Source: a virus
Taxonomy: Duplodnaviria > Caudoviricetes
Reading direction: 5' to 3' (one strand)
Virus record (IMG/VR): IMGVR_UViG_3300012203_000001
Span: 1,085-65,084 of that record
DNA: 64,000 nucleotides
Positions within the stretch are counted from its first letter, which is position 1. The number at the start of each line of letters is the position of its first letter. The notes below the pieces were generated by a model, which was given only the letters and a program-made list of their open reading frames with translations, made no database searches and had not been told where the DNA came from. Shown here one piece after another: positions 12,306-29,669 of the stretch. Position numbers and translations under genes: made by a program.

Positions 12306-12933
12306 CTTGACAGCAGTCGCCTTCTCAGGCTGTGCGACAAAGGAGACCACATACTGGGAACACGGGAAGAAAGGCACTGTCATCGTGCATCACGTGCGGA
12401 AAACCCAAAATGGAACAAGCGATCGAACGGAGAAGTTGACAACGAAAGTAATCGAGCCAGGCCAGATCCACGTCTATGATTTAGGACGACTTCCGGACGG
12501 AAATGGCGGCATGGCGGAAGCTCACCGCTACTACCGCGTAGAGCAATCCGAGACGCTCGATTTGCGTCTTACGCCAGCCAACAAGCTAAAGCCAACGGGT
12601 CCACGCACCGTGTTTACTCCACCAACCTATTCGCCGTTGCCGAAAGATCAGCGGATCAACGATGCGGTGGCCGATGCGAACCAGGCCAAGGAGAAACTCG
12701 ACGAGGCGCGCGGGAAGATCGAGCAGCAGTTGGCAAGCGATAATAACCTCCGCGGTGAGCTTCAGACGGCGATTGATGATAACCAAAAACTTCACGATCA
12801 ACTCTCGGCCGCCATGTCCACTCCTCAACGTTCACCATCGAATGGTCCCGCGCAATCGGATGCGTCCAAGGCTGGGCAAGCTGCCGGTTCAGATCCTCTT
12901 GCACAGTGGGGCGATAAGGTTCAGCCAAAATGA
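12280..12933 (+). CDS. Lipoprotein (TraV/VirB7-like role possible) with coiled coil
   Basis: MLKIISVVSLTAVAFSGC lipobox; strong RBS AAGGAAAG. Confidence 0.7.
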   Translation: MLKIISVVSLTAVAFSGCATKETTYWEHGKKGTVIVHHVRKTQNGTSDRTEKLTTKVIEPGQIHVYDLGRLPDGNGGMAEAHRYYRVEQSETLDLRLTPANKLKPTGPRTVFTPPTYSPLPKDQRINDAVADANQAKEKLDEARGKIEQQLASDNNLRGELQTAIDDNQKLHDQLSAAMSTPQRSPSNGPAQSDASKAGQAAGSDPLAQWGDKVQPK

Positions 12934-13166
12934 AAGACTACGAGAAATACGAGCAGGAACTTCGTGCGGAGTTTGTTTCCAAACATCCGAATGCTACGCC
13001 TGAACAGTTAATAGAGAACTATCGCGAAAATACCGGATTGGTAATGGCTTTCATCGCACAGAAGAACGTGGACGCGATTGATCGCGATAGGATTGAGCGG
13101 ATCAATGATTGGTTGGGTAGCGCTTGGCGCGGTAGCCGTGGCGTGGTGGAGGAAATTGAGCGATGA
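12930..13166 (+). CDS. Hypothetical protein
   Basis: ATGA-coupled on both sides. Confidence 0.55.
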   Translation: MKDYEKYEQELRAEFVSKHPNATPEQLIENYRENTGLVMAFIAQKNVDAIDRDRIERINDWLGSAWRGSRGVVEEIER

Positions 13167-13447
13167 CTGGAGCAGAATTTCACGGATATACACGCGCCAT
13201 AGGAGCACCAGAGAACTGGAAAGAAAATAGGGATGCAGATTGCGTTCCTTTGTTCGTTCGAGATGGAGAGATGGCGGGGCATCATTCGATGGAATCAGTA
13301 TGGGTTTTGTCAGATGCAGAGCGTGAAGAAATAGTACGCGGCGCAAATATTTCTCTAATGATTCTGGGTACCGTTCATCCACCGGTCACGTTGACCGTTA
13401 CTAGGGTTAAAATATTGGATAATGACCCGCATTTAATGCAGCGATGA
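13163..13447 (+). CDS. Phage-type hypothetical protein
   Basis: GAP.NW....C..L......S.W..S..E...I..GA.I.L.I.G..HPPV pattern recalled from phage accessory genes; ATGA-coupled. Confidence 0.6.
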   Translation: MTGAEFHGYTRAIGAPENWKENRDADCVPLFVRDGEMAGHHSMESVWVLSDAEREEIVRGANISLMILGTVHPPVTLTVTRVKILDNDPHLMQR

Positions 13448-14367
13448 TGCCTCTTCTTTCTCCCGAGTTGCTGTTGCGGCTCAACACGATTGGAGATTTC
13501 CTTGGAGAAAATATTCTAGGCCAGCACGAGGTATTGGCTGATATCGTCGCGTTGTTGCAACGTTCCTTTCTAGGCATCCGCTTCCGGAATCGTCCAGTTG
13601 CCTCGATGCTTTTTCTGGGGCCAACCGGCGTGGGCAAGACCGAGACGGTGAATTTGTTCACGCGTCATTTGTTTGGCGATGATGGTGGTAAACTCGTTAG
13701 GCTCGACATGAGCGAGTACATGACGGTGGACTCGATCGGAATCTTGCGCGGCCAAGATACACAGGATTGCGGGTTGCTAGGACTTTATACGAGACGGACC
13801 GGAGATCATGGTACGTTGCTTTTCGATGAGATCGAAAAGGCACACCCGCTCATTATGGACGTATTCTTGCAGATCTTATCCGCCGGCAGGTTTACGCTGG
13901 CGACTGGTGAGACTCTCGACTTGAGCAACTACGTCGTTGTGGCGACGTCTAACATAGGCTCGCGGGTTTTAATGGAAAGCAGGTCAACCGATCGGGAAAC
14001 GATTGTGCGGCGAACGACGCAGGCCGGCACGACCGAGATGCGGCCCGAAACTTTTCGCCGGTTCGATCTTCATTGCGTTTTTAACAAGCTTGATTTCCTG
14101 ACGCTGAAGGCGATTGGCCAACTGCACGTAAACAAGTGTTTGGAGATCATCAACGCGCAAGGTCATTGCGTTAATGTGGAACCGAGCGTGGTCGAGTATA
14201 TCCAGCGCGAAGGTTACTCGGAAAAGTTCGGGGCCGCCTGGATGCAGACTGCGGCGATGCGGATTCTCGGGGATGTTGTCGCTGCGGAGATGCTCAAGAA
14301 CGGGGGAGAGCCGGTAACGGGGACGATTGTGTATGATAGGCGGACGAACCGGTACTTTCTTCAATGA
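13444..14367 (+). CDS. ClpB/ClpA second-domain-like AAA+ ATPase (stand-alone)
   Basis: RPVASMLFLGPTGVGKTE, RLDMSEY, LLFDEIEKAHP, TSNIGS, GYS.KFGA motifs; only 307 aa. Confidence 0.9.
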   Translation: MMPLLSPELLLRLNTIGDFLGENILGQHEVLADIVALLQRSFLGIRFRNRPVASMLFLGPTGVGKTETVNLFTRHLFGDDGGKLVRLDMSEYMTVDSIGILRGQDTQDCGLLGLYTRRTGDHGTLLFDEIEKAHPLIMDVFLQILSAGRFTLATGETLDLSNYVVVATSNIGSRVLMESRSTDRETIVRRTTQAGTTEMRPETFRRFDLHCVFNKLDFLTLKAIGQLHVNKCLEIINAQGHCVNVEPSVVEYIQREGYSEKFGAAWMQTAAMRILGDVVAAEMLKNGGEPVTGTIVYDRRTNRYFLQ

Positions 14368-14576
14368 AGGATAATTTCAAACCGTGTCCGTTCTGTGGTT
14401 CAAGTTATCTAGGCATACAGCCGACTGAAGATTTAGGGGTGTCATCGTCTGGTACGCATAGTTGGCAGCTTGCACGAGTTTATTGCCAGAACTGTTCGGC
14501 TGGTGGAGCGCAGGTTGATACAGAAGAAGAGGCTATCGCAGCTTGGAACACTCGAGCAGATACGAAAATTCAATGA
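14364..14576 (+). CDS. Lar-family restriction alleviation protein
   Basis: KPCPFCG...C..C.A.G.....EEAIAAWNTR signature. Confidence 0.85.
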   Translation: MKDNFKPCPFCGSSYLGIQPTEDLGVSSSGTHSWQLARVYCQNCSAGGAQVDTEEEAIAAWNTRADTKIQ

Positions 14577-16024
14577 GCTTTTTATCATGGCCGCGTCGTC
14601 GGGAAGTGTCCGCACCGGTACCAACTGGGAAGTGGCCGCTCGAATTCCCCCTGGTCCGTTTCGGTGAACACTATGCGGATATCTGGACGCTGGCCGACGC
14701 CGCGCAAGGTGTCGTGATCCTCGGCGAGAATGGCAGTGGCAAAACGTCCGGGTCTGGTGCGCTCCTAGCCCGCAAATATCTAAAAGCTGGGTTTGGTGGC
14801 CTTGTCCTATGCTTTAAAACAGACGAGGCGGATCTATGGCGCTCATACTTGAAAGCAACGGGCCGCGAATCCGATGGCCGGTTCTTTAGCGTCGACAACG
14901 GGTTCACGTTCAACTTCCTTGATTACGAGGCGCAAACCAGCGGAATCGATTTCGCGGAGAACATCGTGACCCTACTCGTCGACGTCGCCAGCATTCATAT
15001 GCGGGCCGAGGTCGGCGGTGCTGAAGCACACTTCTGGTTGCCGCAAAAAAAGAAACTCTTACGGAACGCAATCACACTTCTTCTTCTGGCGTCTGAACCT
15101 ATCCAGTTGCGCTCGCTTTACGAAATGATCGTGTCGGCACCGAAGGATGCGCAGCAAGCCGCGTCAGACGATTGGCAAAATTCCAGCTTTCTATTCAAGC
15201 TTCTTGAACGAGGTAACCAAGCGGCTAGTAATCATCCGGAATGGAAACTGATCACGAACTACTGGATGCTAGAGCGGCCGTCGCTCGCGCCCAAGACTCG
15301 GGAAACGATTGACGCGGATTTTACCGGGATGTTCGATCCGCTCACCCGCGGCAAGATCGGGCAGTTATTCGGGACCGGGACCAACCTGACGCCGCAGGAC
15401 ATTCTTGATGGCAAGGTTGCGGTGATCGATATCCCGGTTGCTAAGTATCGGGAGGTCGGCCAGTACGCGGCGCTAATCTGGGCGCAACTCTTCCAACGCG
15501 CGGTTGATCGCCGGGATTACACGGCACCGGATAGTCGGCCAGTTTTTTTGTGGGAAGACGAGGCGCACTACTTTACCATCGATCAAGATGCGCTATTCCA
15601 AACTACTGCACGGTCGAAAGGGATCTCAGTGGTTCGGCTCACCCAGAACTTGCCGAACTTTCTGGACGCTTACGGACGCGATGGCCGGCACAAGGTTGAT
15701 ACGCTTCTTGGCAATCACGCCACAAAGATCTTTCACCGGAACGGTGACCCGACCACGAACGAATGGGCGGCAAAGGTGATCGCGAAAGAGACCGGGTACA
15801 AACATTCGTTGTCAGCAAGTGGGTCGATTCAATCGGCCAGTGGGTTTAATGCATCGACGAGTGTGTCCGAAGTGGAAGAGGATTCGTGTCCTCCGAAAGA
15901 ATTTATCGGGCTCAAGAACGGCGGTAAAAAGAATCAGAATGTCGTGGAAGGTATCCTGTTTCAATCCGGCCGGCTATGGAATCGGGATCAGCGTTGGGCG
16001 GTAAGGCGATTTAAACAGGCATGA
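14573..16024 (+). CDS. virD4: VirD4/TraD-type coupling protein (no obvious TM anchor)
   Basis: Walker A GENGSGKTSG, FNFLDYE, WEDEAH, ARS.G....TQNLP, LLGN..TKIF motifs. Confidence 0.85.
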   Translation: MSFLSWPRRREVSAPVPTGKWPLEFPLVRFGEHYADIWTLADAAQGVVILGENGSGKTSGSGALLARKYLKAGFGGLVLCFKTDEADLWRSYLKATGRESDGRFFSVDNGFTFNFLDYEAQTSGIDFAENIVTLLVDVASIHMRAEVGGAEAHFWLPQKKKLLRNAITLLLLASEPIQLRSLYEMIVSAPKDAQQAASDDWQNSSFLFKLLERGNQAASNHPEWKLITNYWMLERPSLAPKTRETIDADFTGMFDPLTRGKIGQLFGTGTNLTPQDILDGKVAVIDIPVAKYREVGQYAALIWAQLFQRAVDRRDYTAPDSRPVFLWEDEAHYFTIDQDALFQTTARSKGISVVRLTQNLPNFLDAYGRDGRHKVDTLLGNHATKIFHRNGDPTTNEWAAKVIAKETGYKHSLSASGSIQSASGFNASTSVSEVEEDSCPPKEFIGLKNGGKKNQNVVEGILFQSGRLWNRDQRWAVRRFKQA

Positions 16025-16266
16025 GTGACAATGCTCGCATTAAGGTTGGTTCTTCTATGTGGATGGATTTCCGATGGTGGCGATGGCCTGATGTGCCACA
16101 AACGACACCAACACTCATCGATGAGCAATTAGTGTTTTCCGTGACCAAGGATAGAATGAAACCGGGCTGGTCTGAGCTTCGAGCTGATGGGTTCGGAGGA
16201 AAACCCTACGGAAATGGTTCGATTTTTATAGAAGATAAATATCTTGAACCATTAGTGGAGTTATGA
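16021..16266 (+). CDS. Hypothetical protein
   Basis: ATGA-coupled. Confidence 0.5.
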   Translation: MSDNARIKVGSSMWMDFRWWRWPDVPQTTPTLIDEQLVFSVTKDRMKPGWSELRADGFGGKPYGNGSIFIEDKYLEPLVEL

Positions 16267-16577
16267 TCGAACGCGAAAAACCTAGAATCAAAAAGCGCCG
16301 CCCTGGCATGTGCTCATGGTGCGGCGAGGCTATCACGGTCGGAAGTGAGTTTGATTGGTGGCCATCCGTGAATGACGACGGTGTACCAAACGGAAGTTGC
16401 TCAATGCACCCGGAGTGCGATGACGCCTATCGACTGTCGTACCGCGAAACGTTTCCTAAGTTCGAGTTTGTTCGTGGCGGCAAAGAGAAAAAACCGGAGA
16501 TCATCGATGCAGAAGAAAAAGCCGATCAGATAGAGGCGCTCAAATGGGCGTGGGATAACGGGAAGATTGCCAAGTGA
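16263..16577 (+). CDS. Phage-type Zn-binding hypothetical protein
   Basis: CSWCGE.I..G...MHPEC motif. Confidence 0.6.
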   Translation: MIEREKPRIKKRRPGMCSWCGEAITVGSEFDWWPSVNDDGVPNGSCSMHPECDDAYRLSYRETFPKFEFVRGGKEKKPEIIDAEEKADQIEALKWAWDNGKIAK

Positions 16578-16960
16578 TGAACAATCCCAATCAAACTCCG
16601 ATCCAAGAAGCGGTCAGCCTAATCACGATCGCCGCGCTCTTGATCGCGGTCGCCTGCTACCTGGCCGCGATGAACAACGTGCCTTTCCTCGCGCCGTGTC
16701 TTTTCTGGGTCGCCACGCAAGCGTACCATTTCTTTCCGGCCTTGAACTATCTGCGGTCGCCGCAGGTCCCGATGGTGGTCAGCGCGGCTGCGGTGGGTTG
16801 CAGTGTTTGGCTGGTGGGTATTCCCTTCGCTAGCATCTTGGCCGCCTGGTTCAATCAATCGCAAATGGCCGGCCTTGAGCGTCAAACCGTGCGGCTCAAG
16901 CGCAACAGAGCGCGAATAGTGAAACGTCGCCGGGATAAAGATGGATTCGACGTGGTGTGA
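16574..16960 (+). CDS. Hypothetical membrane protein
   Basis: Two to three TM segments, basic C-terminus. Confidence 0.6.
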   Translation: MMNNPNQTPIQEAVSLITIAALLIAVACYLAAMNNVPFLAPCLFWVATQAYHFFPALNYLRSPQVPMVVSAAAVGCSVWLVGIPFASILAAWFNQSQMAGLERQTVRLKRNRARIVKRRRDKDGFDVV

Positions 16961-16963
16961 ATA

Positions 16964-17317
16964 TTACCAAAGTCCTGAGTTAAACTCTTGAGATTTCAAT
17001 GTGTCGAGCTCGATCTCGTTAGTATTGATATCCATCTGGTTCATCTGGTTTTGGAACTCCAGATTATTAAGCTTCTCCTGATACGTGAGCCGATGATGGC
17101 TCGGCAAGGCAATAAAATTCCGCCTGTATCCTGCTGCGTACTCTGCTTTTGTCGGCACCCGGCAAATGTACGTGTACGGTCCCACCTTGTAGTCAACGCC
17201 GTATGTTGCTGCTTCGGTGAAGCTCCTGGGTGTGATCTTTGGTCGTGGGGAATTACTCGTCATCGGGCCTACGCAGCCAGCTAAGATGATCGGAACAAAG
17301 AGAATTGCGTATTTCAT
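16964..17317 (-). CDS. Lipoprotein, divergent from the relaxase
   Basis: MKYAILFVPIILAGC lipobox. Confidence 0.7.
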   Translation of the reverse strand: MKYAILFVPIILAGCVGPMTSNSPRPKITPRSFTEAATYGVDYKVGPYTYICRVPTKAEYAAGYRRNFIALPSHHRLTYQEKLNNLEFQNQMNQMDINTNEIELDTLKSQEFNSGLW

Positions 17318-17450
17318 GCTTGCACGAATACTATTCTATAGGAATAATGCAAGTGGCATTTCTTGAACCTTACGCGAAGCGCGAGGGGAGATTTGAGTCA
17401 TGACTTTTAGTCCGAAAAGGTGGAAGAAGTTTTAGGGATAATCGAAGGAA
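17318..17450. promoter_or_regulatory. Divergent promoter / candidate oriT region
   Basis: Intergenic region upstream of the relaxase with CTTGCA..TATTC-TATAG-GAATA..TGCAAG inverted repeat and AGTCATGACT palindrome; nic site not recognised. Confidence 0.45.
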
Positions 17451-20252
17451 ATGGTCCGACACAAACAGTTTAATAACGGTTCTGGAAAGTCTAGTGCTTC
17501 TAAGTATTATACTGAACACATGGGGGTGTCGTGTTACTACTGGCAAGGGGTTGGATTGCTCCAGGGGCGGACGTTCAATCATATGGGGTTATCAAAGCGG
17601 GAGATGAACTTGGGTGTGTTCACGTCGCTTGAGAACAATGTAAATCCTGAGACTGGCGAACGGATCACGTTACAGACAAATACGACTCGGCAAGAGTGGG
17701 TGGTGAATTCCAAAACGGGAAAGCGTGAGTTGGAGACTGTAGGGGATCGACGCACAGGCATGGATCTGCCATGCATCGTTCCAAAAACAGTTTCGGAAGT
17801 AATGGCGGAAAATCCTGGCGAGTTCGCGGATGCTATCGAGCGAGTTTGCGTTGCGGCGAACACTAAGGCGATGCAGTTGGCCGAGTCGCTTGCTAAGACG
17901 CGGATACGAATCGGCGGGGCGCAGGATGATCGTGTTACCGGTAACCTTTTGTACTTGAGCGTGATTCACCGGGACGCTCGGCCAGTGGGCTCGCACGTCC
18001 CCGATCCGATGTGGCATGCGCATAACTACGTTTTTAATACCACGTTCGACGGCGAGGAAAAGCGGCTTAAAGCGGTGCAGCTCCATGACGTAATTAAACA
18101 TTTGGATACGGTAGACGCGGTGTTTCTTTCTGAGATTGATCGGGGCCTGATCAATCTCGGCGTTGGTACTGAGCGCACACCGGACGGCCGAAGTTTTGAG
18201 ATCACGAGCGTGAAAGGCAAAGAGATCTTTTGCAAACGGCGCAACGAAATCTTGAAAGAGGAACTCGGGAACCGAGACAGGATTGAGACATTGACGATGT
18301 ACCGGATGCGGGCTGCGGCCAAGGTTGGGAAGTTTCTGGACTACGACAAGGTGAAGACTGAGGTGCGCAACGAGCTAGGCAAACAGATGGCTAAACGCAA
18401 GGTGGTCGTCAGCATGGAAGAGAAACTTGCGAAACTTCGTGAGCAGATGACACCGGAGATCCGCGCATCCCTTCAACGAGACGCGGTGACAACGGCACCC
18501 CGAACGAATTGGCGTACACCGGATGAAGCCAAGTCCGAGGTGCTTCATTCAGCGTTTAAACAGCAGTCAGTCGTTCACGAGTTGGATATTGCCGGCCAAC
18601 TTTTGCGGGCAACGGGCGGGTCAATGACGTTTGATGAAGCGCTCAAGTTCGCCAAAGGCGTAGCATTTATTCACTTGGACAAGGAGGGACACTTAACGAC
18701 AGAGGAAGTGAAAAGGGAAGAGGCGTTGATGCTGAAGACGGTGAGAACTGGATGGGATAGCGAGTCTGCGATGGTGGCGGATCCAAATTATCCGATCGTG
18801 GATCCAAAGATAATCCTGGCCGCCGATCAACTTAAGGCTACCCGATTCGTTTGGAATTCGCGGGATCTGGTCACCGATGTGAGCGGGATTGCCGGTGCCG
18901 GCAAGACAACGCTGCTCAAGGAAGTCGTGGCCGGGCTGCGGGAAAATAGCAGGTTGGTCATCCTTCTCGCACCGACCTCGGCGAGCGAGAAAAACCTCCA
19001 CAAAGATTTTAGGGACGCGATCACCCTTCAGAAGTTCGAAAAAGATTTGGAATTGCAGCACGCTTTGTCGCCCGGGTCCGTGCTGATTCTGGACGAGGTG
19101 TCGATGGTGTCGGTGCCGCAGATGTGTCGGTTGGTTGCGTTAGTGAAAGAAAAAAGGTGTCGGCTGGTGACGTGCGGCGACTCGGATCAGCATGTTAGTC
19201 CGGAGCGCGGCGACGCTATCCGGATCTTGCAAGACTCGGGCTCGGTCCGGTCCGTTGAGTTGACCGCTACCTACAGGGCTCAAGTCGCGTATTTGAAAGA
19301 GACGGTGTTGGATCTGAAAGCGGGCGGCGATCGGCGTGCGATTGGGTACGCGCGGCTCGATAAGCACGGCGATATCCGCGAGGTAGTATCGCAATCGGAT
19401 CTTCGCCAGCAAGCGGTTGACGCACACCTAGAGGCGGTGCGGTCCGGTCACCTCGCGATTCTTGCGAGCCCGGTTCATGCGGAAGCGCGGGAAGCGACGG
19501 CGATTGTTCGCGAGACTTTGAAGGCGGAAGGAAAGATCGAACGGCAAGATCACACGGTTACCATGTTGGCGCGTGTCAATGTCAACGGCCCTGAACTGAA
19601 AGATCCGCTTCATTATCAGGTTGGCCGCGTGGTGTCGTTTCACACGAAGGTTTCCGGTGGGTTCAAAGCGGGCGAGAAATGGCAGGTGATCGGGAAGCCG
19701 TTGGGCGATGGACGATTCAGTTTGTACCGGGATGGCGTATCGAAATTGTTTAGCCCGAAATCTAAAGGGAAGTGGAACGTTTATGAGTCGGACGACATGG
19801 CGATCAGTGTTGGCGACCAGGTACGAATCACCGAGGGATTTAAAGAGCGTGGGGTAGCTTTCAAGAATAACGATATCGCCAAGGTGGCGGCAATCGAGCC
19901 CGACCGCGTGACCCTTGACGACGGCCGCTCGATGCGCCGTGACTTTATGCATCTGGACCAGGGCGTCTGTATCACATCCTACGCCACGCAATGCCGCACT
20001 GTGCGGCAGGTTGTTGCGATCGCTCCCCTTTCCTCGTTTGCGGAATTGGATGCGAAAACTTTCTATGTCCTCGCGTCGCGGGCCACGCACCGGGCGATTT
20101 TCTTCACGGATTGCCGCGATGCGTTCAAAGAAGCCGTACTTCGTCCCGGTGATCGGAAATCAGTTTGGGAATATCTAGCCGGGAAACTTGATCGGTTACC
20201 TGAACGTATTCAGCGAAAATCGAGAGAACAGGAGATGGGTTATGAGCGATAA
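17451..20252 (+). CDS. MOB-F relaxase-helicase (TrwC/TraI type)
   Basis: YY..YY tyrosines, N.NP.TGE, D...VPKTVS, H..ARP...DP.WHAH.YVFN HUH motif, helicase GIAGAGKTT, ILDEVSM, GDSDQH, TSYATQ..TV, YV..SR. Confidence 0.93.
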   Translation: MVRHKQFNNGSGKSSASKYYTEHMGVSCYYWQGVGLLQGRTFNHMGLSKREMNLGVFTSLENNVNPETGERITLQTNTTRQEWVVNSKTGKRELETVGDRRTGMDLPCIVPKTVSEVMAENPGEFADAIERVCVAANTKAMQLAESLAKTRIRIGGAQDDRVTGNLLYLSVIHRDARPVGSHVPDPMWHAHNYVFNTTFDGEEKRLKAVQLHDVIKHLDTVDAVFLSEIDRGLINLGVGTERTPDGRSFEITSVKGKEIFCKRRNEILKEELGNRDRIETLTMYRMRAAAKVGKFLDYDKVKTEVRNELGKQMAKRKVVVSMEEKLAKLREQMTPEIRASLQRDAVTTAPRTNWRTPDEAKSEVLHSAFKQQSVVHELDIAGQLLRATGGSMTFDEALKFAKGVAFIHLDKEGHLTTEEVKREEALMLKTVRTGWDSESAMVADPNYPIVDPKIILAADQLKATRFVWNSRDLVTDVSGIAGAGKTTLLKEVVAGLRENSRLVILLAPTSASEKNLHKDFRDAITLQKFEKDLELQHALSPGSVLILDEVSMVSVPQMCRLVALVKEKRCRLVTCGDSDQHVSPERGDAIRILQDSGSVRSVELTATYRAQVAYLKETVLDLKAGGDRRAIGYARLDKHGDIREVVSQSDLRQQAVDAHLEAVRSGHLAILASPVHAEAREATAIVRETLKAEGKIERQDHTVTMLARVNVNGPELKDPLHYQVGRVVSFHTKVSGGFKAGEKWQVIGKPLGDGRFSLYRDGVSKLFSPKSKGKWNVYESDDMAISVGDQVRITEGFKERGVAFKNNDIAKVAAIEPDRVTLDDGRSMRRDFMHLDQGVCITSYATQCRTVRQVVAIAPLSSFAELDAKTFYVLASRATHRAIFFTDCRDAFKEAVLRPGDRKSVWEYLAGKLDRLPERIQRKSREQEMGYER

Positions 20253-20574
20253 CGGTGTCCGATCACTTCGTGAGCAGTACGCTGCTCCGCGCCGGTCATT
20301 GGCATGGGAGATAGGTAACGCTGACATCGTTCGGTTCTGGGCCGAGGACGGCAACTGTTATGGATTCCTGTTTCATCACGTCATGTCGACGGTATACCTA
20401 GCGCAACCAAACCGGCTATTCATTCAATGCCCGCTCGGTGCGTTGGTCATATCCGGCCCGAAAGTGTTAGAGTTCCTGGATGACTTTTCCAATCGGAAAG
20501 TTGCGGTTCTGAAAGCGGATGGGACCGATATTACGTCGGTCGAAATGTTGCCGCGAACAGAAAAAGAAGAGTAG
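20242..20574 (+). CDS. Hypothetical protein downstream of the relaxase
   Basis: Probable ATG at 20242 overlapping the relaxase end. Confidence 0.55.
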   Translation: MSDNGVRSLREQYAAPRRSLAWEIGNADIVRFWAEDGNCYGFLFHHVMSTVYLAQPNRLFIQCPLGALVISGPKVLEFLDDFSNRKVAVLKADGTDITSVEMLPRTEKEE

Positions 20575-20897
20575 TTGGCAGAATGTTATTGTGTAATTCT
20601 GTACTTTAAAGTATAGCGCCGTTATGGTTTAGCGCCCTAGCGGCATGGATTATCGAGGTCGGGCGCGGCCATCTTTTGCAAAAAGATGAGTAATCTGCGC
20701 GACCTACAAGTCGGCGAAAAACGCCACGCGACGTTTTTTCTCAATCACGGTAAGCAGCCGCAGACCGTCAATTGCCTAGGGTTAAGTGAGGTACGTGTGT
20801 TCGTTTACGAAGTTCCTGAACGGATCACGTTTAAGAATTTTCGTGAAGTTTTTCACCTGTCTTTGTGGTTTAAAGACGTTTCGGATCTGGCGATCGA

Positions 20898-22292
20898 ATG
20901 CAAATAGAAGCGTCACCACCCGTTTCTATCGTTGTTCAACGTCCGAAACCGCGTGTGCCCTTCTGCCTATTCGCCCGCGCCTATCTCGGGTTGCACCTTT
21001 ATGACTGGCAGATGCGAATTTTAATTGCACTCGAACGCAAGCATGTGTCAGGGGTAATTTGTAATGGAGGCGGCAAATCGAGTGTGGTTATTGCATCAGC
21101 TGTATTGGCATTTCTCTATAACTGGCCAACTGGACGGTGTGCGCTCACAAGTGGTTCATACCTTCAGCTCGAATCAATCCTCTGGCCGGCGATCGAGCAA
21201 TACCGGCCACTACCGTACTTCCGAGGGTGGACATGGAACCAAGTCGAGATAAAAACGCCGCAAGGCGGGTTTGCTCAAGGGTTTTCCACAGATCGGCCGG
21301 AAGCACTTGAGGGTTGGCACCAGTCGGTTGAATCGCCGCTTCTCTATATCGTCGATGAAGCGAAAGCGATCAGTGACGAGAAATTCCAGGGGATCGGGCG
21401 GTGTACCCCCACCTTTTACGGCCAGTTTTCCTCCGCGGGCGCCGCTCAAGGCGATTTCTATCATTCGTTCAACAAACTGAAAGCGTTCTTTTGGACTTGT
21501 AAGGTAACGAGTCGCGATTGTCCGCACATCAGCGATGAGCAGCGGGCGTTCGATAAAGCTAAGCTCGACCGGGCCGTGTACGCGTCCAAGCATGACTCGG
21601 AATTTGACAGTGATCTGTCCGGGTCGGCGATCAAGCTTGGTGTAATTAACACGGCGCTCGAACGCCAGGTGTGTCTCAGTCATAATCCGGGGCAACGCGC
21701 GGCTTTCTGCGATTTTGCGGCGGGCGGCGCTGAGAATGTGATTGCGCTACGCGACGGTAACAAGGTCACGCTCATTGCTGCGTGGCGCAATCCCGACCCT
21801 ACCCAGGCGTGCCGGGAATTCATCGAACACTTTAAGCGGTTGCGTCTGCATGCTTCTGAGATCTTTGCTGACGTAGGTGGCCTAGGGGTGGTGATGTGCT
21901 CGAATTTAAAAGCCGCCGGATGGCCGGTGGTCGAGGTCAATAACGGGTTGCCGGCCGAGGACGCGGAGCATTACGCGAACCGCGGGTCGGAGATCTGGTT
22001 CAAGGCGGCGCAAATAATCGAGTTCGGGCTCGGGAACGGTAAGCACATGATCATTCCGGAAGACAAGTTGTTCATCGAACAGGCGACTAGCCGGAAACGC
22101 GAGTACGACCAGAAACAACGACTCAAGATCGAAAGCAAAAAAGATTTAGTAGGGCGCGGCATTCCCTCCCCTGACCGCGCGGATGCTGTGCTTGGAGCGA
22201 TGATTTGTCGACCGTCACAATGGAACGCGCAATTAGTTGCGCAGGTGCATCTGCCTGAAAACATGTTCGCACCGTCGTTTATGAGGTTCTGA
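20898..22292 (+). CDS. terL: Terminase large subunit
   Basis: LYDWQ, Walker A CNGGGKSS, IVDEAK Walker B, nuclease CDFAAGG, D.GGLG, N.GSE.W, IESK......SPDRADA. Confidence 0.9.
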   Translation: MQIEASPPVSIVVQRPKPRVPFCLFARAYLGLHLYDWQMRILIALERKHVSGVICNGGGKSSVVIASAVLAFLYNWPTGRCALTSGSYLQLESILWPAIEQYRPLPYFRGWTWNQVEIKTPQGGFAQGFSTDRPEALEGWHQSVESPLLYIVDEAKAISDEKFQGIGRCTPTFYGQFSSAGAAQGDFYHSFNKLKAFFWTCKVTSRDCPHISDEQRAFDKAKLDRAVYASKHDSEFDSDLSGSAIKLGVINTALERQVCLSHNPGQRAAFCDFAAGGAENVIALRDGNKVTLIAAWRNPDPTQACREFIEHFKRLRLHASEIFADVGGLGVVMCSNLKAAGWPVVEVNNGLPAEDAEHYANRGSEIWFKAAQIIEFGLGNGKHMIIPEDKLFIEQATSRKREYDQKQRLKIESKKDLVGRGIPSPDRADAVLGAMICRPSQWNAQLVAQVHLPENMFAPSFMRF

Positions 22293-22542
22293 CCCTATGG
22301 AAGAAATCATTCCTACCTCTAACCCGACCGTATTCGTCAAAGACGGCAAACTATTCGTCTTAGAGCAGACCGGCCCAATCAATTTCGTTCTCAAACCGTT
22401 CAAGTACTCAGATCAAAAGCTATGGAAGAAATAATTCATACCTCGGGGTTACCTGCTCCAGCGCCAAATCCATTAGGACATTTCACCGACGTTAGGGTTG
22501 TCGATGTCCCGGTTGAACCAGAGCCAGCAAAAGAGGAAACGC

Positions 22543-22809
22543 ATGGGAATCCTTGAGACGATTCAGAAAAATCCTCAAGCGTCGGTTGCGGCGTTGATAT
22601 CAGCAGCAACGGGTGTTGTGACATGTTACTTCACTATTGTCGGGCATCCGGAGCGGGGCGACTCCATCGCTAAACAGTTGAGCGATATGGCGGTACCTAT
22701 CGGGACTGCAGTGACGATTGTAATGGCGCTTAAAAGCGGGATTCACTTTAGTCGCGGGCCAGCGCCGTTGCCAGCCGAACAACCGCAACCGTTGACACCG
22801 AAGGCGTAG
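22543..22809 (+). CDS. Putative holin
   Basis: Two hydrophobic segments, directly upstream of the lysin; RBS GAGGA. Confidence 0.5.
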   Translation: MGILETIQKNPQASVAALISAATGVVTCYFTIVGHPERGDSIAKQLSDMAVPIGTAVTIVMALKSGIHFSRGPAPLPAEQPQPLTPKA

Positions 22810-22816
22810 CCAAGCG

Positions 22817-23518
22817 ATGAATGCCGATTTTGTCCCATTCGATCTTTCAAGAGTGGCATTGATCCGGCGCGTTTTATCGGTAGCAGAGACTGATGAACCT
22901 CAATGGAATCCGGCAAGCGTATACATCTACCGTGACGGAAACGAGGGTCGTAAGCAATGTACGCTTTCGATCGGGTTTACGGCTGATGGCGGTAACCTTC
23001 TCAAGGTGTTGGAAAGATACATTGATCAGCATGGTGCATTCGCAATCCAAATGGCGCCCTATATCATGGCGCTCCGTAATGGCGATCCAGGTATTGAGCC
23101 TAATTTCGTAGGGCTCTTAAAAACAGCCGGCCGGCAAGATCCTCTTTTTGGTCAGGTGCAGCTAGAAGCGTTTGACGACATTTATTTAGGGCCGGCGTTC
23201 CAGTGGGCCAAAGAACATGGCTTTACGCTCCCCTTATCGTTCCTCGTGATCGCCGATTCGTTCCTTCATTCCGGATCTGTGCTTGTATCGATCCGCAATT
23301 TGTTCACTGAAAAGGTTCCAAAGGATGGCGGGAACGAAAAGGCGTGGGTAAGCAAATACACGGCCAAACGGCGGAATTGGTTAGCGACGAGCGCGCGCAC
23401 GATTCTGCACAGCACAGTTTATCGGTGCGACTGCTTTACTCGGGAGATATTGAGCAATAATTGGGAACTGTTAAATGAGCCAATAGCGATGAATGGGGTT
23501 CACGTTTATGCGGCGTGA
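22817..23518 (+). CDS. GH46 chitosanase-like endolysin
   Basis: SVAET, VYIY.DG...Q.T..IGFT..GGNL..VL..Y, LS.LVIADS.LHSGS, GGNEKAWV..Y...R..WL lysozyme-fold/GH46 pattern. Confidence 0.75.
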   Translation: MNADFVPFDLSRVALIRRVLSVAETDEPQWNPASVYIYRDGNEGRKQCTLSIGFTADGGNLLKVLERYIDQHGAFAIQMAPYIMALRNGDPGIEPNFVGLLKTAGRQDPLFGQVQLEAFDDIYLGPAFQWAKEHGFTLPLSFLVIADSFLHSGSVLVSIRNLFTEKVPKDGGNEKAWVSKYTAKRRNWLATSARTILHSTVYRCDCFTREILSNNWELLNEPIAMNGVHVYAA

Positions 23519-23725
23519 ATTAACCAAATAGAAAGGAAACAAATGCCAGACGATACCGATCAACCAAAGCAATCGATAGAAGAAGCGCCACCGGCAACAC
23601 CGTCTCAAGAGGCATCAAGCGATCCTCTTCATACGCCTGGAGTTGGCCCTGTTATCCTTCATGGGGCGCGCTCGCTCACGATCGAGTTTACGGACGGTCA
23701 CACAATTCAGGTCAGTTTTTAAGTT

Positions 23726-23914
23726 ATGCTTGGATCACTAATTTATTGGCTGATTTTGGTGATTGTCGTTTGCCTGTTGTACTGGGTTTTGTCGCAATTT
23801 GCACCCGCACCGATTATGAAGGTGGTGCTGGTGGTTTGTGTGGTGATTGTCGTTTTATCACTGATTTTTATGTTCCTTCCACTCGCTGGAATTCACTTTG
23901 GCGCGATGCACTAA
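23726..23914 (+). CDS. Small two-TM membrane protein (holin-like)
   Basis: 62 aa, nearly all hydrophobic, two helices separated by APAP. Confidence 0.6.
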   Translation: MLGSLIYWLILVIVVCLLYWVLSQFAPAPIMKVVLVVCVVIVVLSLIFMFLPLAGIHFGAMH

Positions 23915-23915
23915 A

Positions 23916-25673
23916 ATGCTGCGTAAAACTAAAACTAGTTTGATCGAGTCGCGGGCTCCGATGGAGGTCCCGACACCTAACGGCAATACGACGCCGAGTG
24001 GAAAACTCGTGGCGTCTGCCGATACGCGCGGCATGGTCGATATCACGAATCGCGACCGAATGCTGTACCAGCTCTGGGGAGAGCTGAAACCTGACCAACT
24101 GGCGAGTATTCTCAAACAGGCGGTTATAGGGAACTTGGTTTGGCAAGAGCGTTTGTTCCAAAAAATGGTGGACGAATGGCCACGGCTCCAAAAGAACATC
24201 CTAAGCCTGAAACGCGATGTAGCGAACCTTGACTGGAGCATCGAGCCGTTTTCAGGGCGCGGGTCTGATGCTTCAGGTTTAGCACAAGAAAAAGCGGATT
24301 TGGTCGAGCGCGCGCTATTCAACATGGAGGGCGATCCTAAGAAGGACGAATCGGATTTCTCGGGGATGATCAAAGATCTCGTGGACGCTATTCCGTGTTG
24401 TTTCTCGATTTCAGAGGTTTATTGGACACAGTGCGACGGTGACGTGGTGCCGCAGTGTACCCGCAAGCTTCCAGCAAGGTTTTACGGGTACGGGCTCGCT
24501 CCTGACAAGCCTGATGAACTGATGTTGAATCCGCGCGGGAACCTGGCGTTTACCTGGGAATCGTTGCAGCCGTTTCCGGATAACAAATTTCTCGTAGGGA
24601 TCTTCAAGGGATACAATAACCACCCGACTTTGGCGGCCATGTTACGCTCGCTGACTCCACATTGGTTTGCGCAAAAGTACGGGCTCAAATGGTTCATGAC
24701 GTTTTGTCAGATGTTCGGGTCGCCGACACGGATGGCCGAGTACACGCCTGGCGATATGACGACGTTTAACTCGTTGTGTTCGATGCTTGAACAGATGGGC
24801 TACGCCAATTGGGGCGTGTTCCCGGCTGGTGCGAAAGTGTCGCTCTTAGAGGCGAAAGGAACAGGCGGAACGATGTTGCCGCAGCGTGTGCTTGCTGCTG
24901 ATGCCGATGAACAATGCGACATAATGGTTCTTGGTCAGACACTGACAAGCGCGGTTCGATCGAGTGGCGGCAACCGCGCACTTGGCCAGGTCCATGCTGA
25001 CACAGAGCGCAAGGTGCTCAACGGAGTCGCGGATTTTGTCAAGACCGTGATTAATAATCAGTTGATCCCGGCCATTCTGTTTCTGAACTATGGCGAGACC
25101 ACTGAACGGCCGCAGCTTCAGGGAACGCTCGAGGAACCAACCGATGAGTTGGCGCTTGCGCAACGGGACCAGGTATTGTTTCAGCAAATGCAGGTACCGG
25201 TGGCGAAAGACTTTCTTTATCCGCGTCACTCCATTCCCGAGCCAGGTGACGAAGACGATTTATACACGCCGCCCGGGATAGGATCAGACCAGAAGTTTAA
25301 AGATGCATCATTAGGCGGTGGAGGTGGCGGGATGCCTGGAGGAGACGGACAACCGGAATCGACTGAAGGCGGTACGGCGAGCGCAGGAGAGGTGACCGTG
25401 CGACCTCCAAAGCATGTTGTGGCCAGCATGAAGCGTGGGATGAAACTAAGGGAAAAGTACGGTCACGGCGGCTCGATTATGGCGGTTATGCGAGCTCGCG
25501 ATATATCCGAGTCCAAGGCGCTGAGCGTTAACTCCGTGCGTCTGATGCGGATGTATTTCGATGCGCACCCAGAAGACGCTCAAGCGTCGCCCGAGAGTGC
25601 GGGAGGTATCGCGTATTTACTGCACGGCGGGACATCCGGCCAAAGTTGGTGTGAATCAATTACGAAAGGATAA
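23916..25673 (+). CDS. Portal protein, Mu gp29/DUF935-like, with an extra C-terminal domain
   Basis: DA...FS.SEV.W, W..F...FG.P.R...Y, LGQTLTS....G.RALGQVH, INNQLIP...LNYG motifs. Confidence 0.9.
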   Translation: MLRKTKTSLIESRAPMEVPTPNGNTTPSGKLVASADTRGMVDITNRDRMLYQLWGELKPDQLASILKQAVIGNLVWQERLFQKMVDEWPRLQKNILSLKRDVANLDWSIEPFSGRGSDASGLAQEKADLVERALFNMEGDPKKDESDFSGMIKDLVDAIPCCFSISEVYWTQCDGDVVPQCTRKLPARFYGYGLAPDKPDELMLNPRGNLAFTWESLQPFPDNKFLVGIFKGYNNHPTLAAMLRSLTPHWFAQKYGLKWFMTFCQMFGSPTRMAEYTPGDMTTFNSLCSMLEQMGYANWGVFPAGAKVSLLEAKGTGGTMLPQRVLAADADEQCDIMVLGQTLTSAVRSSGGNRALGQVHADTERKVLNGVADFVKTVINNQLIPAILFLNYGETTERPQLQGTLEEPTDELALAQRDQVLFQQMQVPVAKDFLYPRHSIPEPGDEDDLYTPPGIGSDQKFKDASLGGGGGGMPGGDGQPESTEGGTASAGEVTVRPPKHVVASMKRGMKLREKYGHGGSIMAVMRARDISESKALSVNSVRLMRMYFDAHPEDAQASPESAGGIAYLLHGGTSGQSWCESITKG

Positions 25674-25675
25674 AA

Positions 25676-25918
25676 GTGGAAGTAAGCAATACTAAAATGA
25701 TTGATGATTTGGCTAAGTCCGGCCTCGGCCTTGAACAGGCTTGTGACCAATTAATTATCGAGGCCAGCCGACTGAAAAAGAAGGTTAAATCGATGGTGGA
25801 GACGCGACGTGCTGATTATATCGATTGGTTAAAGGATGAGATTGAGCACATGACTTATGAGCTGCGCCAGGACAACACTTTAGTGAAGTCGGCACCTATG
25901 GCAGGAGGTAACCCCTAA
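25676..25918 (+). CDS. Hypothetical protein
   Basis: ORF between portal and gpF. Confidence 0.45.
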   Translation: MEVSNTKMIDDLAKSGLGLEQACDQLIIEASRLKKKVKSMVETRRADYIDWLKDEIEHMTYELRQDNTLVKSAPMAGGNP

Positions 25919-25959
25919 CCCACGGTTGCCGCTGGTCGGTTCGATTCCGACTGCCGACG
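25888..25959 (+). ncRNA. Non-canonical tRNA-like cloverleaf
   Basis: Acceptor GTCGGCA/TGCCGAC, T-arm GTCGG-TTCGATT-CCGAC, 7-bp anticodon-like stem GGTAACC/GGTTGCC with 10-nt loop, minimal D arm CCT/AGG. Confidence 0.55.
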
Positions 25960-25977
25960 CCCCGAAAAGGAAACGGG

Positions 25978-26232
25978 ATGAGCGAACATCAAGCAATGGC
26001 AGAAATGCCTAGATACAAGTGCCACAAGGAAGTTTGGGCACTTAGAATTAAAGAAGTGTCAGGGAATACGCTATCTTTCTTCGAACCGTTATTCGCACCG
26101 ATAGAAGTAGATCCTAAGTTATTCTCTCGGTACATGCCAACGACTGGAGACTTTTATGTTGTTTACGCCGATGGATACAAATCAATTTCGCCTGAAAAAG
26201 CATTCAAGGATGGGTACTCGCCAATAGAATAA
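25978..26232 (+). CDS. Conserved phage hypothetical protein
   Basis: MPRYKCHKEVWAL.I...YVVY.DGYKS.SP..AF..GY pattern. Confidence 0.7.
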   Translation: MSEHQAMAEMPRYKCHKEVWALRIKEVSGNTLSFFEPLFAPIEVDPKLFSRYMPTTGDFYVVYADGYKSISPEKAFKDGYSPIE

Positions 26233-27015
26233 TTGGAAATGAAGCGATACCGCAAAGCTCACAAAGATCCCCATCCAGGCCTTAAAGCTGCTCTTGCGGC
26301 ATTGCTTGTAACGGCGTTATCCGAGAAAAAGCGGTTACTATTAACCTACGTGGCCGAGAATGGCAATGAAGGGTTACTGGATTACGGGAACGCAATCCTT
26401 GAGCGCGGGTTAGATAAGTACTTCGACAGTGCGTCGTTTATTCTAAACGAGAGCGTGGTTGATTCGTCAATTGAGACAATGCAAGCATCCGGGTTGGATT
26501 TAACAAGTAATTTTCTGCGTAACGTCGAACAGCACAATAGACAGATCGCCCGCGATGAATCGGCAAGATTGCTAGGTGCTCATTACGATCAGGGACACGG
26601 TGTTGCCGTAGCAACCGTTGCTGGGTTCACGATCGGGCATGTGTTGATAGCGCAACTCGAAGATCTGTTAAGCGAAGCGAAAGCCGATCAGTGGTCTATC
26701 AATAAAATCGAGAAAGGTATCTCGGAATTGAGCGGATTTAGCGCGAAGCGTGCTGATGCGATCGCGCATAATTCGCTGGCATTCGTGTCTGGTCGATCAG
26801 CGCGCAACGTCGCGGCGATGACGGGTGCAATGGAAAAGATGAGCGAGACGGTTGGCGACGATCGTGTGTGCGATGAGTGCGATCAGAACGCGGCGGACGG
26901 GTGGATTGGGATAAATGATCGGTTCTCTGGGAGCGATACGGAAGACGTGCCGCATCATCCGGCGTGCCGTTGCGATTGTATCTATCAATGGCAGGAGGCG
27001 TTAGTACCTGCATGA
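26233..27015 (+). CDS. Minor head protein, Mu gpF/SPP1 gp7-like
   Basis: GDDRVC..C..N...G.I....F......P.HP.CRC C-terminal motif. Confidence 0.85.
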   Translation: MEMKRYRKAHKDPHPGLKAALAALLVTALSEKKRLLLTYVAENGNEGLLDYGNAILERGLDKYFDSASFILNESVVDSSIETMQASGLDLTSNFLRNVEQHNRQIARDESARLLGAHYDQGHGVAVATVAGFTIGHVLIAQLEDLLSEAKADQWSINKIEKGISELSGFSAKRADAIAHNSLAFVSGRSARNVAAMTGAMEKMSETVGDDRVCDECDQNAADGWIGINDRFSGSDTEDVPHHPACRCDCIYQWQEALVPA

Positions 27016-27250
27016 TCGGCACTTCTTACGGATCAATTGTTGGCGGGTGCAGATGGATAATTGGCGATCTGCATGTCGTTGGTCTTTGTATCATATTAAC
27101 GAATGGACGCGTGATCCGGTTATTCGTTCCGGCGAGTAACTACATGTTCCGAGTCAACCAAGCTGTTAGCTGGAATGATGTCGAGCTTTATTGGCACCCT
27201 ACAACGAGCAAGTGTGTCAAGTTCTCGATTATCCAAGAGGGAGTGAACGT

Positions 27251-27862
27251 ATGAGCCTCACGATCGATATCTCGATTGAGCAGGATACGGCAACCAGCCG
27301 ATTGGATGCGCTCGGGGCGATTTGCGAGAATCCAGGTGAGCAGTTGCGAGCTGCGGCAACAGCCGTATACGAATTCGTTAAAGAGTACCATATCCAGTTC
27401 GGTAACCGGTGGCGTGGCGATCATTACATGTCGGGGTCGAAGTCAGGTGAATGGCAACAGGCGGTTGCAGATGCGTGGCAGCCGCCCATCCTGATTTCAG
27501 ATGTCGACGGGGCATCGGCGATTGTCGAGAACACGCACCCGCACCTTGCGTTCAAGATCGAAGGCGGAACGATCGTGCCGGTCAGCGCCGGGGCGCTCAC
27601 GATTCCGCTGGTGCCGGAAGCCAAAGGCGTATCGGCCAGGGATTATGCAGCAAGCCAAGGTGTGGAGCTATTTGCGGTCAAAGGCGTGTTGGCTATCAAG
27701 GGTGCGGCACCCGGTGAGATTGTCCCGATCTACGCTTTGAAACAGAGCGTAACGCAAGAGCCGTGGCCGGGTGCTATGCCTCCCGATGAGGAGATTCGCG
27801 ACGTGTTCGCTGCGGCCTTTCAATTGCAGTTAGAACCAGTTTTAGAAGGATTATCGGCATGA
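27251..27862 (+). CDS. Virion morphogenesis protein (Mu gpG-like)
   Basis: GGTI.P..A.ALTIPL, P.Y.LK.SV motifs; position after gpF. Confidence 0.6.
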   Translation: MSLTIDISIEQDTATSRLDALGAICENPGEQLRAAATAVYEFVKEYHIQFGNRWRGDHYMSGSKSGEWQQAVADAWQPPILISDVDGASAIVENTHPHLAFKIEGGTIVPVSAGALTIPLVPEAKGVSARDYAASQGVELFAVKGVLAIKGAAPGEIVPIYALKQSVTQEPWPGAMPPDEEIRDVFAAAFQLQLEPVLEGLSA

Positions 27863-27992
27863 CGAACATGGAAGTTCTGCAACGCGAATTGATCGAACAA
27901 GATCAGGCAAATTGGAGAGTAAAAGCTCAACTTATCAAGCAAGAAGAAGATTTGGAGTTACCTCCTGAAACTTGGCGCAATGTGAGAACAGT

Positions 27993-29282: not shown

Positions 29283-29300
29283 CCAAGGAGGAAAATTATC

Positions 29301-29669
29301 ATGTTAACTTATGGCGGTGTATTTCGCGAGGTGCCTGTGGTGCCGTTCGCGGTCGCGTCCGGGTCGACGCTTGTTCGTGGGATGGTGGTTGAATGGAATG
29401 CCGGCGTTGTTCAGCCGTGGTCAGTAGGCACAAACGTGCCTTTCGGCGTGTGCATCGGTGACGCTAACTTATTAACGTTAACGGCTGATGTTTATTGCGC
29501 CAAGGGGGCGAGCGTACTTATCAAGTGCGCATCTGGCATTATCCCAGTGCCGTCTCAATTGTTGTACTGGGCGGCAAGCGGTGTTGTGAACGTTACCGTG
29601 CTTAATACGGCTGTCGCAAAAGCGATCGGAACGGGATTTAACGGATTTGTTGAGGCGATCCTACTCTAA
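29301..29669 (+). CDS. Capsid decoration/cement protein
   Basis: ~120 aa beta-rich protein between protease and MCP; strong RBS AAGGAGG. Confidence 0.65.
   Translation: MLTYGGVFREVPVVPFAVASGSTLVRGMVVEWNAGVVQPWSVGTNVPFGVCIGDANLLTLTADVYCAKGASVLIKCASGIIPVPSQLLYWAASGVVNVTVLNTAVAKAIGTGFNGFVEAILL

Follow-up and report, generated by a model that had tools for sequence, protein, structure and literature searches.

Phages and conjugative elements are usually treated as two separate routes of gene transfer. According to a 2025 review, no phage-plasmid is conjugative, no conjugative phage is known, and the gain of genes by phage-plasmids is limited by capsid volume. A conjugation-related element of any kind has been found in only six E. 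coli phage-plasmids. Among descriptions of conjugative tailed phages in the literature, only the following turned up: tandems of a phage and an integrative and conjugative element (ICE), which are described as two elements joined by site-specific accretion and are not regarded by the authors as hybrids (Sci Adv 2026, PMC13651849); the E. coli p1002-1, presented in the SegMantX preprint as a “conjugative phage-plasmid” that arose when plasmids fused; a mention in passing of “conjugative phage-plasmids” in a single-cell preprint (10.64898/2025.12.20.690322); and Phi1207.3, a streptococcal “conjugative prophage” reported to move by a mating-like route (PMC4260502). The present analysis concerns a stretch of 64,000 nucleotides (the window), bases 1085-65084 of the 65,084-bp IMG/VR virus record IMGVR_UViG_3300012203_000001, which is nearly the whole genome of a 65-kb temperate element of siphovirus type, probably with a soil Verrucomicrobiota host, and in which conjugation (tra) genes lie between the genes for the small (terS) and large (terL) terminase subunits. 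As judged from its genes and from comparison with relatives, an ancestor gained a block of ~20 kb exactly at the terS-terL junction, where the two genes normally overlap. This block brought VirB4, VirB6/8/9/10-like genes, a type IV coupling protein (T4CP), a MOBF relaxase-helicase, a single-stranded DNA-binding protein (SSB), an anti-restriction gene and a divergent helix-turn-helix (HTH) regulator, and it has been inherited with the phage ever since under purifying selection. A complete-looking conjugation set is part of a phage genome and has been kept across deep divergence. The explanation that best accounts for the whole, and that is considered probable, combines this old insertion with two exits from the host cell and with a stem-loop placed over a start codon ahead of terL.

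A conjugation module between the terminase genes

The 80 open reading frames (ORFs) listed for the window were scanned against protein families, and the principal features are collected in Table 1. The record is classed as having direct terminal repeats, with a CheckV completeness of 100%, and its bases 1-123 are identical to 64962-65084, so that the molecule closes on itself into a unique circle of 64,961 bp. A terS protein identical to that of the window was found on another assembly of 65,102 bp (64,961 + 141), because of which the length of the repeat looks dependent on the assembler, as would fit a circular or permuted molecule. The first-pass annotation had proposed that, were the molecule circular, conjugation genes would part two normally adjacent genes, and had allowed that the DNA past position 64000 might instead hold a terL of its own. 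The 961 bp outside the window contain small minus-strand ORFs only, and no terL. The order round the circle is terS, ~1.5 kb of small minus-strand ORFs, the divergent HTH gene, the tra module and terL, and the conjugation genes do part terS from terL, with 21.9 kb between the two.

Table 1. Positions of the features discussed, numbered from the first base of the window
Feature	Positions	Strand	Basis or remark
HTH regulator, divergent from tra module	475-708	-	phrog_35 transcriptional repressor, weak match (E 3.9e-4)
Conjugation (tra) module: mating-pair formation (MPF) genes, T4CP, relaxase, accessory genes	710-20574	+	~20 kb; MOBF/T4CP/VirB4
VirB4/TraC-type ATPase	2657-5227	+	Pfam P-loop_TraG, 47.3 bits (cut-off 25.8)
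SSB	5240-5596	+	
Polytopic membrane protein, VirB6-like	7091-8491	+	Position and topology (7 hydrophobic segments)
VirB8-like protein	8829-9422	+	Named from topology
VirB9-like protein	9524-10480	+	Named from topology
VirB10/TrbI	10477-11616	+	Pfam TrbI, 46.8 bits (cut-off 35)
ClpB-like AAA protein	13444-14367	+	ClpB-D2-like
Lar restriction-alleviation (anti-restriction) protein	14364-14576	+	
T4CP	14543-16024	+	Pfam TraG-D_C, 39 bits (cut-off 22); TrwB_AAD_bind, 23.1 bits (cut-off 20.5)
Conserved non-coding block upstream of relaxase: candidate promoter/operator and origin of transfer (oriT)	17312-17445	+	Conservation in G001, inverted repeats
MOBF (TrwC-type) relaxase fused to SF1B helicase	17451-20252	+	Pfam TrwC, 7e-31 (108.3 bits, cut-off 25); AAA_30, 1.9e-34
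110-aa protein, last gene of tra block	20242-20574	+	Overlaps relaxase stop (relaxase ends at 20252)
Spacer with blocks conserved in G001	20575-20685	+	Alignment; 111 bp
12-bp palindrome TACTTTAAAGTA	20602-20613		Present as first reported
Hairpin with 8-bp stem, CATCTTTT-GCA-AAAAGATG	20670-20688	+	3' arm contains ATG of 73-aa ORF
73-aa ORF	20686-20907	+	Overlaps terL start by 10 nt
Large terminase subunit (terL)	20898-22292	+	Profile of homologues against PDB
Virion module: Mu-like portal, MuF, protease/scaffold, major head protein, adaptor, major tail protein, tape measure, tail-tip	23898-43155	+	
Tyrosine recombinase/integrase	61210-62136	+	phrog_1 integrase (E 1.3e-32); Pfam Phage_int_SAM_1
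ParB-N domain fused to N6/N4 DNA methyltransferase	62215-63498	+	Pfam N6_N4_Mtase (2e-18), ParB_N; phrog_498 (E 1e-115)
Small terminase subunit (terS), N-terminal HTH	63476-63973	+	Orthology via G001 and L139
Copy of 123-bp terminal repeat (circular join)	63878-64000	.	Record 1-123 identical to 64962-65084

The identity of the two terminase genes was assigned through relatives. A profile of 37 terL homologues matches large terminases in the PDB (8dkr, 4.3e-8; Sf6 gp2, 4idh, 6.5e-6), and many of the homologues are named “phage terminase large subunit” by the Joint Genome Institute (JGI); the single terL sequence had no Pfam match. The terS-like gene, which had been pointed out as ending 27 bp before the end of the window and as preceded by a ParB-methyltransferase gene, is best understood through G001, a 66,519-bp, 100% complete record from another sample and the one relative returned by a relaxase scan of IMG/VR (a VirB4 scan of the same database added no further one). 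The G001 orthologue stands at the equivalent map position, at the far end of its contig and ~740 bp from the contig end, and matches phrog_4102 “terminase small subunit” (E 4e-10), as does the terS of the tra-less relative L139 (E 2e-12), with which it shares 38% identity over 132 aa (E 1e-36). In L139 and in L141, also tra-less, with terL proteins 58% and 57% identical to that of the window, the homologous 147-aa HTH protein overlaps the start of terL, so that the terS-terL junction for which the first-pass annotation had proposed to look in tra-less relatives is indeed present there. L139 is counted as tra-less from the 13.4 kb examined and from its 40,995-bp contig. In more distant relatives (terL at most 42% identical), an HTH terS of the phrog_309 type abuts terL, downstream of a ParB-domain gene that lies 1.4-2 kb upstream of terL in 11 of the distant relatives, and tra genes were found in 0 of 215 loci with such more distant terL relatives, within the DNA examined. 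Because terS abuts or overlaps terL in tra-less and distant relatives alike, the adjacency is ancestral and broken in the window.

A different view of the gene at the window's end would make it a transcription regulator, with terS either missing or represented by the 73-aa ORF that is translationally coupled to terL. The window protein itself matches HTH families only, including sigma-70 region 4, and a homologue 84% identical to it is called a CsgD-family regulator by JGI. However, its G001 orthologue, at the same map position, matches a terS family and is homologous over its full length to the L139 gene that abuts terL, and the C-terminal tail of the window protein, 35 aa long, is 71% identical to that of the G001 protein, whereas the 73-aa ORF has no family, HTH or fold match, is absent from G001 and was rejected as a terS candidate. 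The likelihood that the gene is a regulator is accordingly slim, and it is annotated here as a putative terS. Its AlphaFold model is poor (pLDDT 66.5), and the top Foldseek row obtained with this poor model, the small terminase 4xvn_E (E 0.46), is not significant. A 183-aa variant of the protein, P0126, is identical to the window protein to about residue 112 and then continues in a frame that matches sequence past the circular join. Either a deletion or a gene prediction that ran across a different assembly break could account for this variant.

The age of the arrangement is indicated by G001, which has homologues for 50 of the 80 listed ORFs, including 19 of the 30 in the tra region, in the same order (43619-47113, 51853-52329 and 62215-63498 being the exceptions among the 50) and with the whole layout shared at 55-79% protein identity. 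T4CP and terL are each 79% identical between the two genomes, the relaxase is 72% identical, and the divergent HTH regulator has a homologue at the same place (68% over 65 aa by tblastx). In 46 gene pairs compared by the Nei-Gojobori method (NG86), synonymous divergence (dS) is at least 0.84 or undefined (22 of 46) in every pair, and the synonymous sites are thus saturated, while the median nonsynonymous divergence (dN) is 0.29 in 18 tra genes versus 0.32 in 18 packaging, head and tail genes. Since dS is saturated and dN in tra is close to that in the virion genes, the block has diverged together with the phage under purifying selection; the shared layout and equal divergence further argue that the insertion is old, as had first been suspected, that it was kept by selection, and that it is no assembly chimera. 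Between terS and the tra regulator, outside the window, the record carries three consecutive small minus-strand ORFs of 77, 79 and 73 aa (L002:363-1034), the first two of which start MKPP(K/R)xEKE and seem to be tandem paralogues; the small minus-strand ORFs that occupy this place in G001 are different ones.

A recent event might be imagined in place of an old insertion, either the integration of an ICE or plasmid into a prophage or the formation of a phage-ICE tandem or cointegrate, for which the phage-ICE tandems and the fused p1002-1 provide precedents. Against this, the window has a single integrase and none in the tra block, where no replication gene of its own was found either; flanking direct repeats are absent, as originally noted, the longest word shared between the two borders being 10 nt (9 nt in direct orientation); GC content stays level across the tra borders; and the genes on either side of the block overlap each other in relatives, the block having the same borders in G001 and tra being equally diverged there. 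A contig joined by the assembler from a phage and a plasmid could likewise be suspected in a low-depth metagenome assembly (~5x in the likely source run). Yet the same order across both borders is found in G001, an independent IMG/VR record of another sample, one Logan contig from the likely source run spans 20271-22508, and with it the spacer and the whole of terL, with zero differences, and a second soil study contains at least 99% identical pieces from tra, terL and portal, at comparably low depth; the stretch 20341-20752 is unbridged among the X2 contigs listed, which is a gap in cover only. Because of the second study, the single integrase, the lack of repeats longer than 10 nt, the even GC content and the evidence of G001, a recent insertion is considered very unlikely and the probability of a chimera negligible.

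Within the old block, the VirB4 protein also matches TIGR02746 (TraC) at E 1.6e-22, under the family cut-off, and homologues with 27-30% identity occur in 3 of 5 Verrucomicrobiota metagenome-assembled genomes (MAGs) searched. The proteins encoded between VirB4 and VirB10 have a signal peptide, one transmembrane segment or seven, at positions expected for VirB5/6/8/9. The order of the VirB8-like, VirB9-like and VirB10 genes matches the VirB4 clusters of the MAGs G002 and G003, and MPF homologues in the same order (25-38% identity) stand beside VirB4 in two Verrucomicrobiota MAG chromosomes. The VirB6-like protein had no family match, and a homologue occupies the same position within the type IV secretion system (T4SS) cluster of G002. 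The ClpB-D2-like AAA protein is 75% identical between the two phage tra modules, and in two Verrucomicrobiota MAG clusters its homologues (44% and 39%) are encoded next to VirB4, though on the other strand. The protein may be a constant component of this type of T4SS, and it also matches the PADLOC models PDC-M37B and DolB. An HNH/AP2 nuclease gene before VirB4 (2150-2647) is present in the tra module of the window only.

The relaxase scored 83.2 against NCBIfam MobF, under the cut-off of 100, and its sequence has an H-x-D..H-x-H motif and N-terminal Tyr pairs, which we take to be relaxase motifs. It is 26-28% identical to annotated plasmid MobF relaxases over 94-96% of its length, and among the best 5,000 plasmids matching it 4,798 are typed conjugative. 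In 50,697 deposited phage records, the relaxase found one match, which was partial, and VirB4 found none. This terL family is carried by 23 plasmids, 0 of which are typed conjugative. The Akkermansia muciniphila plasmid NZ_AP021899.1 (32,814 bp) has a terL of the window family, 36.8% identical and annotated as hypothetical, and may be a phage-plasmid or phage genome of Verrucomicrobiota that has gone unrecognised.

MOBF relaxases recognise a hairpin next to nic, and the nick site of MOBF systems usually follows that hairpin. Directly upstream of the relaxase gene, 17312-17418 shares 78% nucleotide identity with G001 over 109 bp, though the genes on both sides differ, and the alignment reaches ~17445. 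The block contains an imperfect 16-bp inverted repeat (17319-17353) in which G001 shows paired changes, a second hairpin of 7 bp with a GAA loop (CTTACGC-GAA-GCG..) that is perfect in G001, and promoter-like hexamers. These features suggest a better candidate for oriT than the hairpin at the junction with terL. In the tra module of G001 only, an endonuclease VII gene stands between the oriT-like block and the relaxase gene (L218:9468-9926); the homologue in the window lies at 51853-52329 on the minus strand.

The junction ahead of terL

The distance of ~320 bp first given between the last tra gene and terL holds (terL begins 323 bp after 20574), as does the lack of a recognisable terS in this gap. 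The gap is not empty and contains the 73-aa ORF, two homologues of which (80-81% identity) were found in close relatives only, one of them on a 5,746-bp contig equal in length to the contig of an 88%-identical terL. The 110-aa protein that closes the tra block has a 55% identical homologue directly 3' of the G001 relaxase gene and belongs to a family with 165 representative clusters at E <= 0.001. Its model is confident (pLDDT 89.6), and it had no match in Pfam, PHROG, NCBIfam, PADLOC or Foldseek; a weak resemblance to a PH-like fold (Z 5.1) was within noise and was discarded.

The hairpin and the palindrome that had been reported from this junction are both present at their positions, but they are not scars of an insertion. 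Eight perfect hairpins (stem of at least 8 bp, loop of 3-8 nt) were observed in the window against a mean expectation of 7.0 from first-order Markov simulations (30 runs, range 2-15), so that this one is no rarer than chance. Folding z-scores range from -1.2 to -1.6 in the window, which is not unusual, with an RNA fold z of the hairpin of -1.2 in the window versus -3.1 in G001, and the palindrome occurs at chance frequency and is not conserved in G001. Both are therefore unremarkable in themselves, and the hairpin derives its weight solely from its conservation in G001, where CATCTTTCTT-CTG-AAGAAAGATG follows the same CGGGCGCGG(A)CC flank. Compared with the window, the G001 stem is longer by two pairs and has one compensatory change from T-A to C-G, and terL starts at the ATG within its 3' arm. 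The pattern of the conserved flank was found at 22 loci in IMG/VR, among which G001 is the sole relative. A consensus promoter and terminator scan of 16500-23000 returned fewer sites than shuffled sequence and no promoter-like site in the spacer, the sole exception there being a stem at 20657-20670, weakly resembling a terminator, which overlaps the flank of the hairpin.

From its register and conservation, the stem-loop probably controls translation of terL. The junction 20253-20897 would then be made up of the tail of the tra operon (the 110-aa gene), a partly conserved spacer and the conserved stem-loop. As RNA, the stem-loop would bury the first start codon of the packaging operon, which is that of terL itself in G001 and that of the small ORF coupled to terL in the window, and would keep translation of terL low until conditions of the late phase opened it, whereby packaging would be uncoupled from read-through of the tra operon. 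Alternatively, 20670-20688 could act as DNA, as a hairpin at which oriT is nicked or as a pac or recombinase site. It lies ~420 bp downstream of the relaxase gene behind a conserved upstream flank, and the hairpin next to nic that relaxases of this class recognise would suit such a role. However, the 3' arm ends exactly in the start codon in both genomes, a register that fits a role as RNA; the non-coding block immediately ahead of the relaxase gene, which is longer, conserved and has two inverted repeats, offers a better candidate oriT; and no Rfam family matched anywhere in 16900-21100 at E <= 1. A DNA site is on balance rather improbable, and a translational role of the stem-loop is preferred. 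The contig L140 (terL 74% identical) has 640 bp upstream of terL (L140:1-675) that are unrelated to the window, to G001 and to the other loci; this short contig carries a minus-strand ORF there, without terS, tra or hairpin, and would represent a third state of the junction. The presence of unrelated DNA upstream of its terL suggests that the junction takes up cargo repeatedly.

Virion and mating as two possible exits

Downstream of terL, the portal matches Pfam Portal_Mu (4.7e-65) and the protease Pfam Mu-like_Pro, and PHROG families identify an HK97-type head (major head protein, phrog_1005, 2.2e-21; protease, phrog_328, 2.7e-23) as well as the head-tail adaptor, major tail protein, tape measure, tail assembly and tail proteins; all genes of the virion module have G001 homologues. 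A large terminase, portal, major head protein, maturation protease and tail genes, by which Caudoviricetes are recognised, are thus all encoded. Recombination and replication genes occupy a minus-strand block at 49-58 kb, which is followed on the plus strand by a DnaB-type helicase, an HTH protein, the integrase, the ParB-methyltransferase and terS. The integrase, the only one in the window, has homologues in G001 (65% identical) and L139 (57%). No Rep or ParA family matched among the 80 ORFs scanned, many of which had no family at all, and a tRNA scan of the window found none. Between terL and portal lies a cargo site whose size varies, with 1.6 kb and a GH46-like enzyme in the window (22293-23897), ~7 kb in G001 (reverse-complement 23090-30155) and 6.8 kb in L139 (L139:3433-10271); that of G001 holds a 36% homologue of the GH43/fn3 protein encoded at 43619-47113 in the window. 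An autotransporter beta-domain protein (50093-51406, minus strand) and an ETR1_N-like membrane protein (47059-47583, plus strand), neither with a G001 homologue, are possibly cargo for lysogenic conversion.

Given these genes, the element could leave its host by two routes. Through the first, the terminase would package the element into virions. Through the second, the relaxase would nick oriT, most likely within 17312-17445, and the T4CP and T4SS would pass a single strand to a neighbouring cell. It is also conceivable that only one route works, in that the element is conjugative and unable to package 65 kb (or packages fragments in the manner of a gene transfer agent), or that it is a phage whose T4SS serves a use other than its own transfer. 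Size bears most directly on this question. Five relatives in IMG/VR have no relaxase, and four of these are 100% complete at 34.5-40 kb, so that the present element is ~25 kb larger than its complete tra-less relatives; because of this difference, either the capsid grew or packaging is incomplete. Those who would have a single route may also appeal to the limit on capsid volume and to the lack of any known conjugative phage, both as given in the 2025 review, and to the several MPF parts that a family search fails to recognise. On the other hand, long open frames show both modules to be intact in each of the two lineages, between which synonymous sites are saturated and the dN of the modules is equal. 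Moreover, the genomes of 64,961 and 66,519 bp and the longest contigs of close terL clusters (63,851 bp, terL 89% identical, and 66,833 bp, terL 79% identical) are of similar size, and five assemblies or contigs fall within 63.9-66.8 kb even though the window and G001 carry different cargo. This narrow range, which a capsid size limit would produce, hints at such a limit and is no proof of one. A single working route is therefore judged unlikely, albeit by no means negligible.

The preferred explanation, an old insertion with two exits and a stem-loop switch, has further points to answer. To the excess of ~25 kb just described, to the regulator-like family matches of the window terS and to the chance frequency of the hairpin, all of which weigh against it, are to be added the following. 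An unchanged capsid could not hold the enlarged genome, and capsid size is unreadable from sequence. In the mating apparatus only VirB4, VirB10/TrbI, T4CP and the relaxase are past family cut-offs; the equivalents of VirB2/3/5/6/8/9 are named solely by topology and synteny, and family scans of the window found no VirB11. An oriT role of 17312-17445 is a guess, conservation of the hairpin is based on two genomes (the window and G001), and G001 is classed as “linear”, with its closure assumed. Finally, both exits, by virion and by mating, are predicted here from genes alone.

As to the host, terL relatives were located at 55 genome loci, and 46 of these belong to MAGs whose titles name Verrucomicrobiota lineages, several of the genera and orders in those titles presumably belonging to this phylum. 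The runs that carry the element are soil metagenomes, and no RNA dataset was listed as carrying the stretch. A wider proposal, put forward tentatively and with some doubt, is that of a stable “conjugative phage” lineage of soil Verrucomicrobiota that could exit as a siphovirus or through its own T4SS, with a capsid enlarged for the extra 20-25 kb and with the tra-terL stem-loop as a switch that keeps packaging off during mating. If both routes do work, then host range, the cost of transfer and the rules by which phages gain genes would need to be revisited, and the lineage would serve as a natural experiment on how the capacity of a capsid adjusts when the genome is 60% larger. Should only one of them work, the lineage would still be a clear example of a long-lived hybrid.

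Comparison with known systems

Two described elements can be set beside this lineage only briefly. Phi1207.3, to our knowledge, encodes no T4SS, and the Streptomyces plasmid-phage pZL12 is said to carry a Tra gene. With phage-plasmids of the P1, N15 and SSU5 types, the present element shares a single replicon with a full tailed-phage set and plasmid-typical genes. These phage-plasmids, however, have plasmid replication and partition genes and are without conjugation, whereas the element in the window has an integrase, no recognised Rep or ParA, a full MOBF/T4CP/VirB4 set and a ParB-N domain fused to a methyltransferase. ICEs and conjugative MOBF plasmids have in common with it the TrwC-type relaxase-helicase, T4CP, VirB4, VirB10 and SSB, but in contrast to theirs, the module of the window sits inside a phage packaging operon. 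In the phage-ICE tandems, phage and conjugation genes likewise travel as one unit. Such tandems are two adjacent elements, each with its own integrase and att sites; the window has one integrase and no flanking, att-like repeats, and its tra block is nested between terS and terL and has diverged together with the phage. The p1002-1 molecule similarly unites phage-plasmid and conjugative-plasmid gene sets on a single molecule, yet it is a cointegrate of which both parents are recognisable in related isolates, whereas the lineage of the window has no known separate parents and saturated synonymous divergence. The nesting of its block in the packaging operon, the lack of integration parts belonging to that block and the long co-inheritance of both gene sets place this lineage apart from the described cases.

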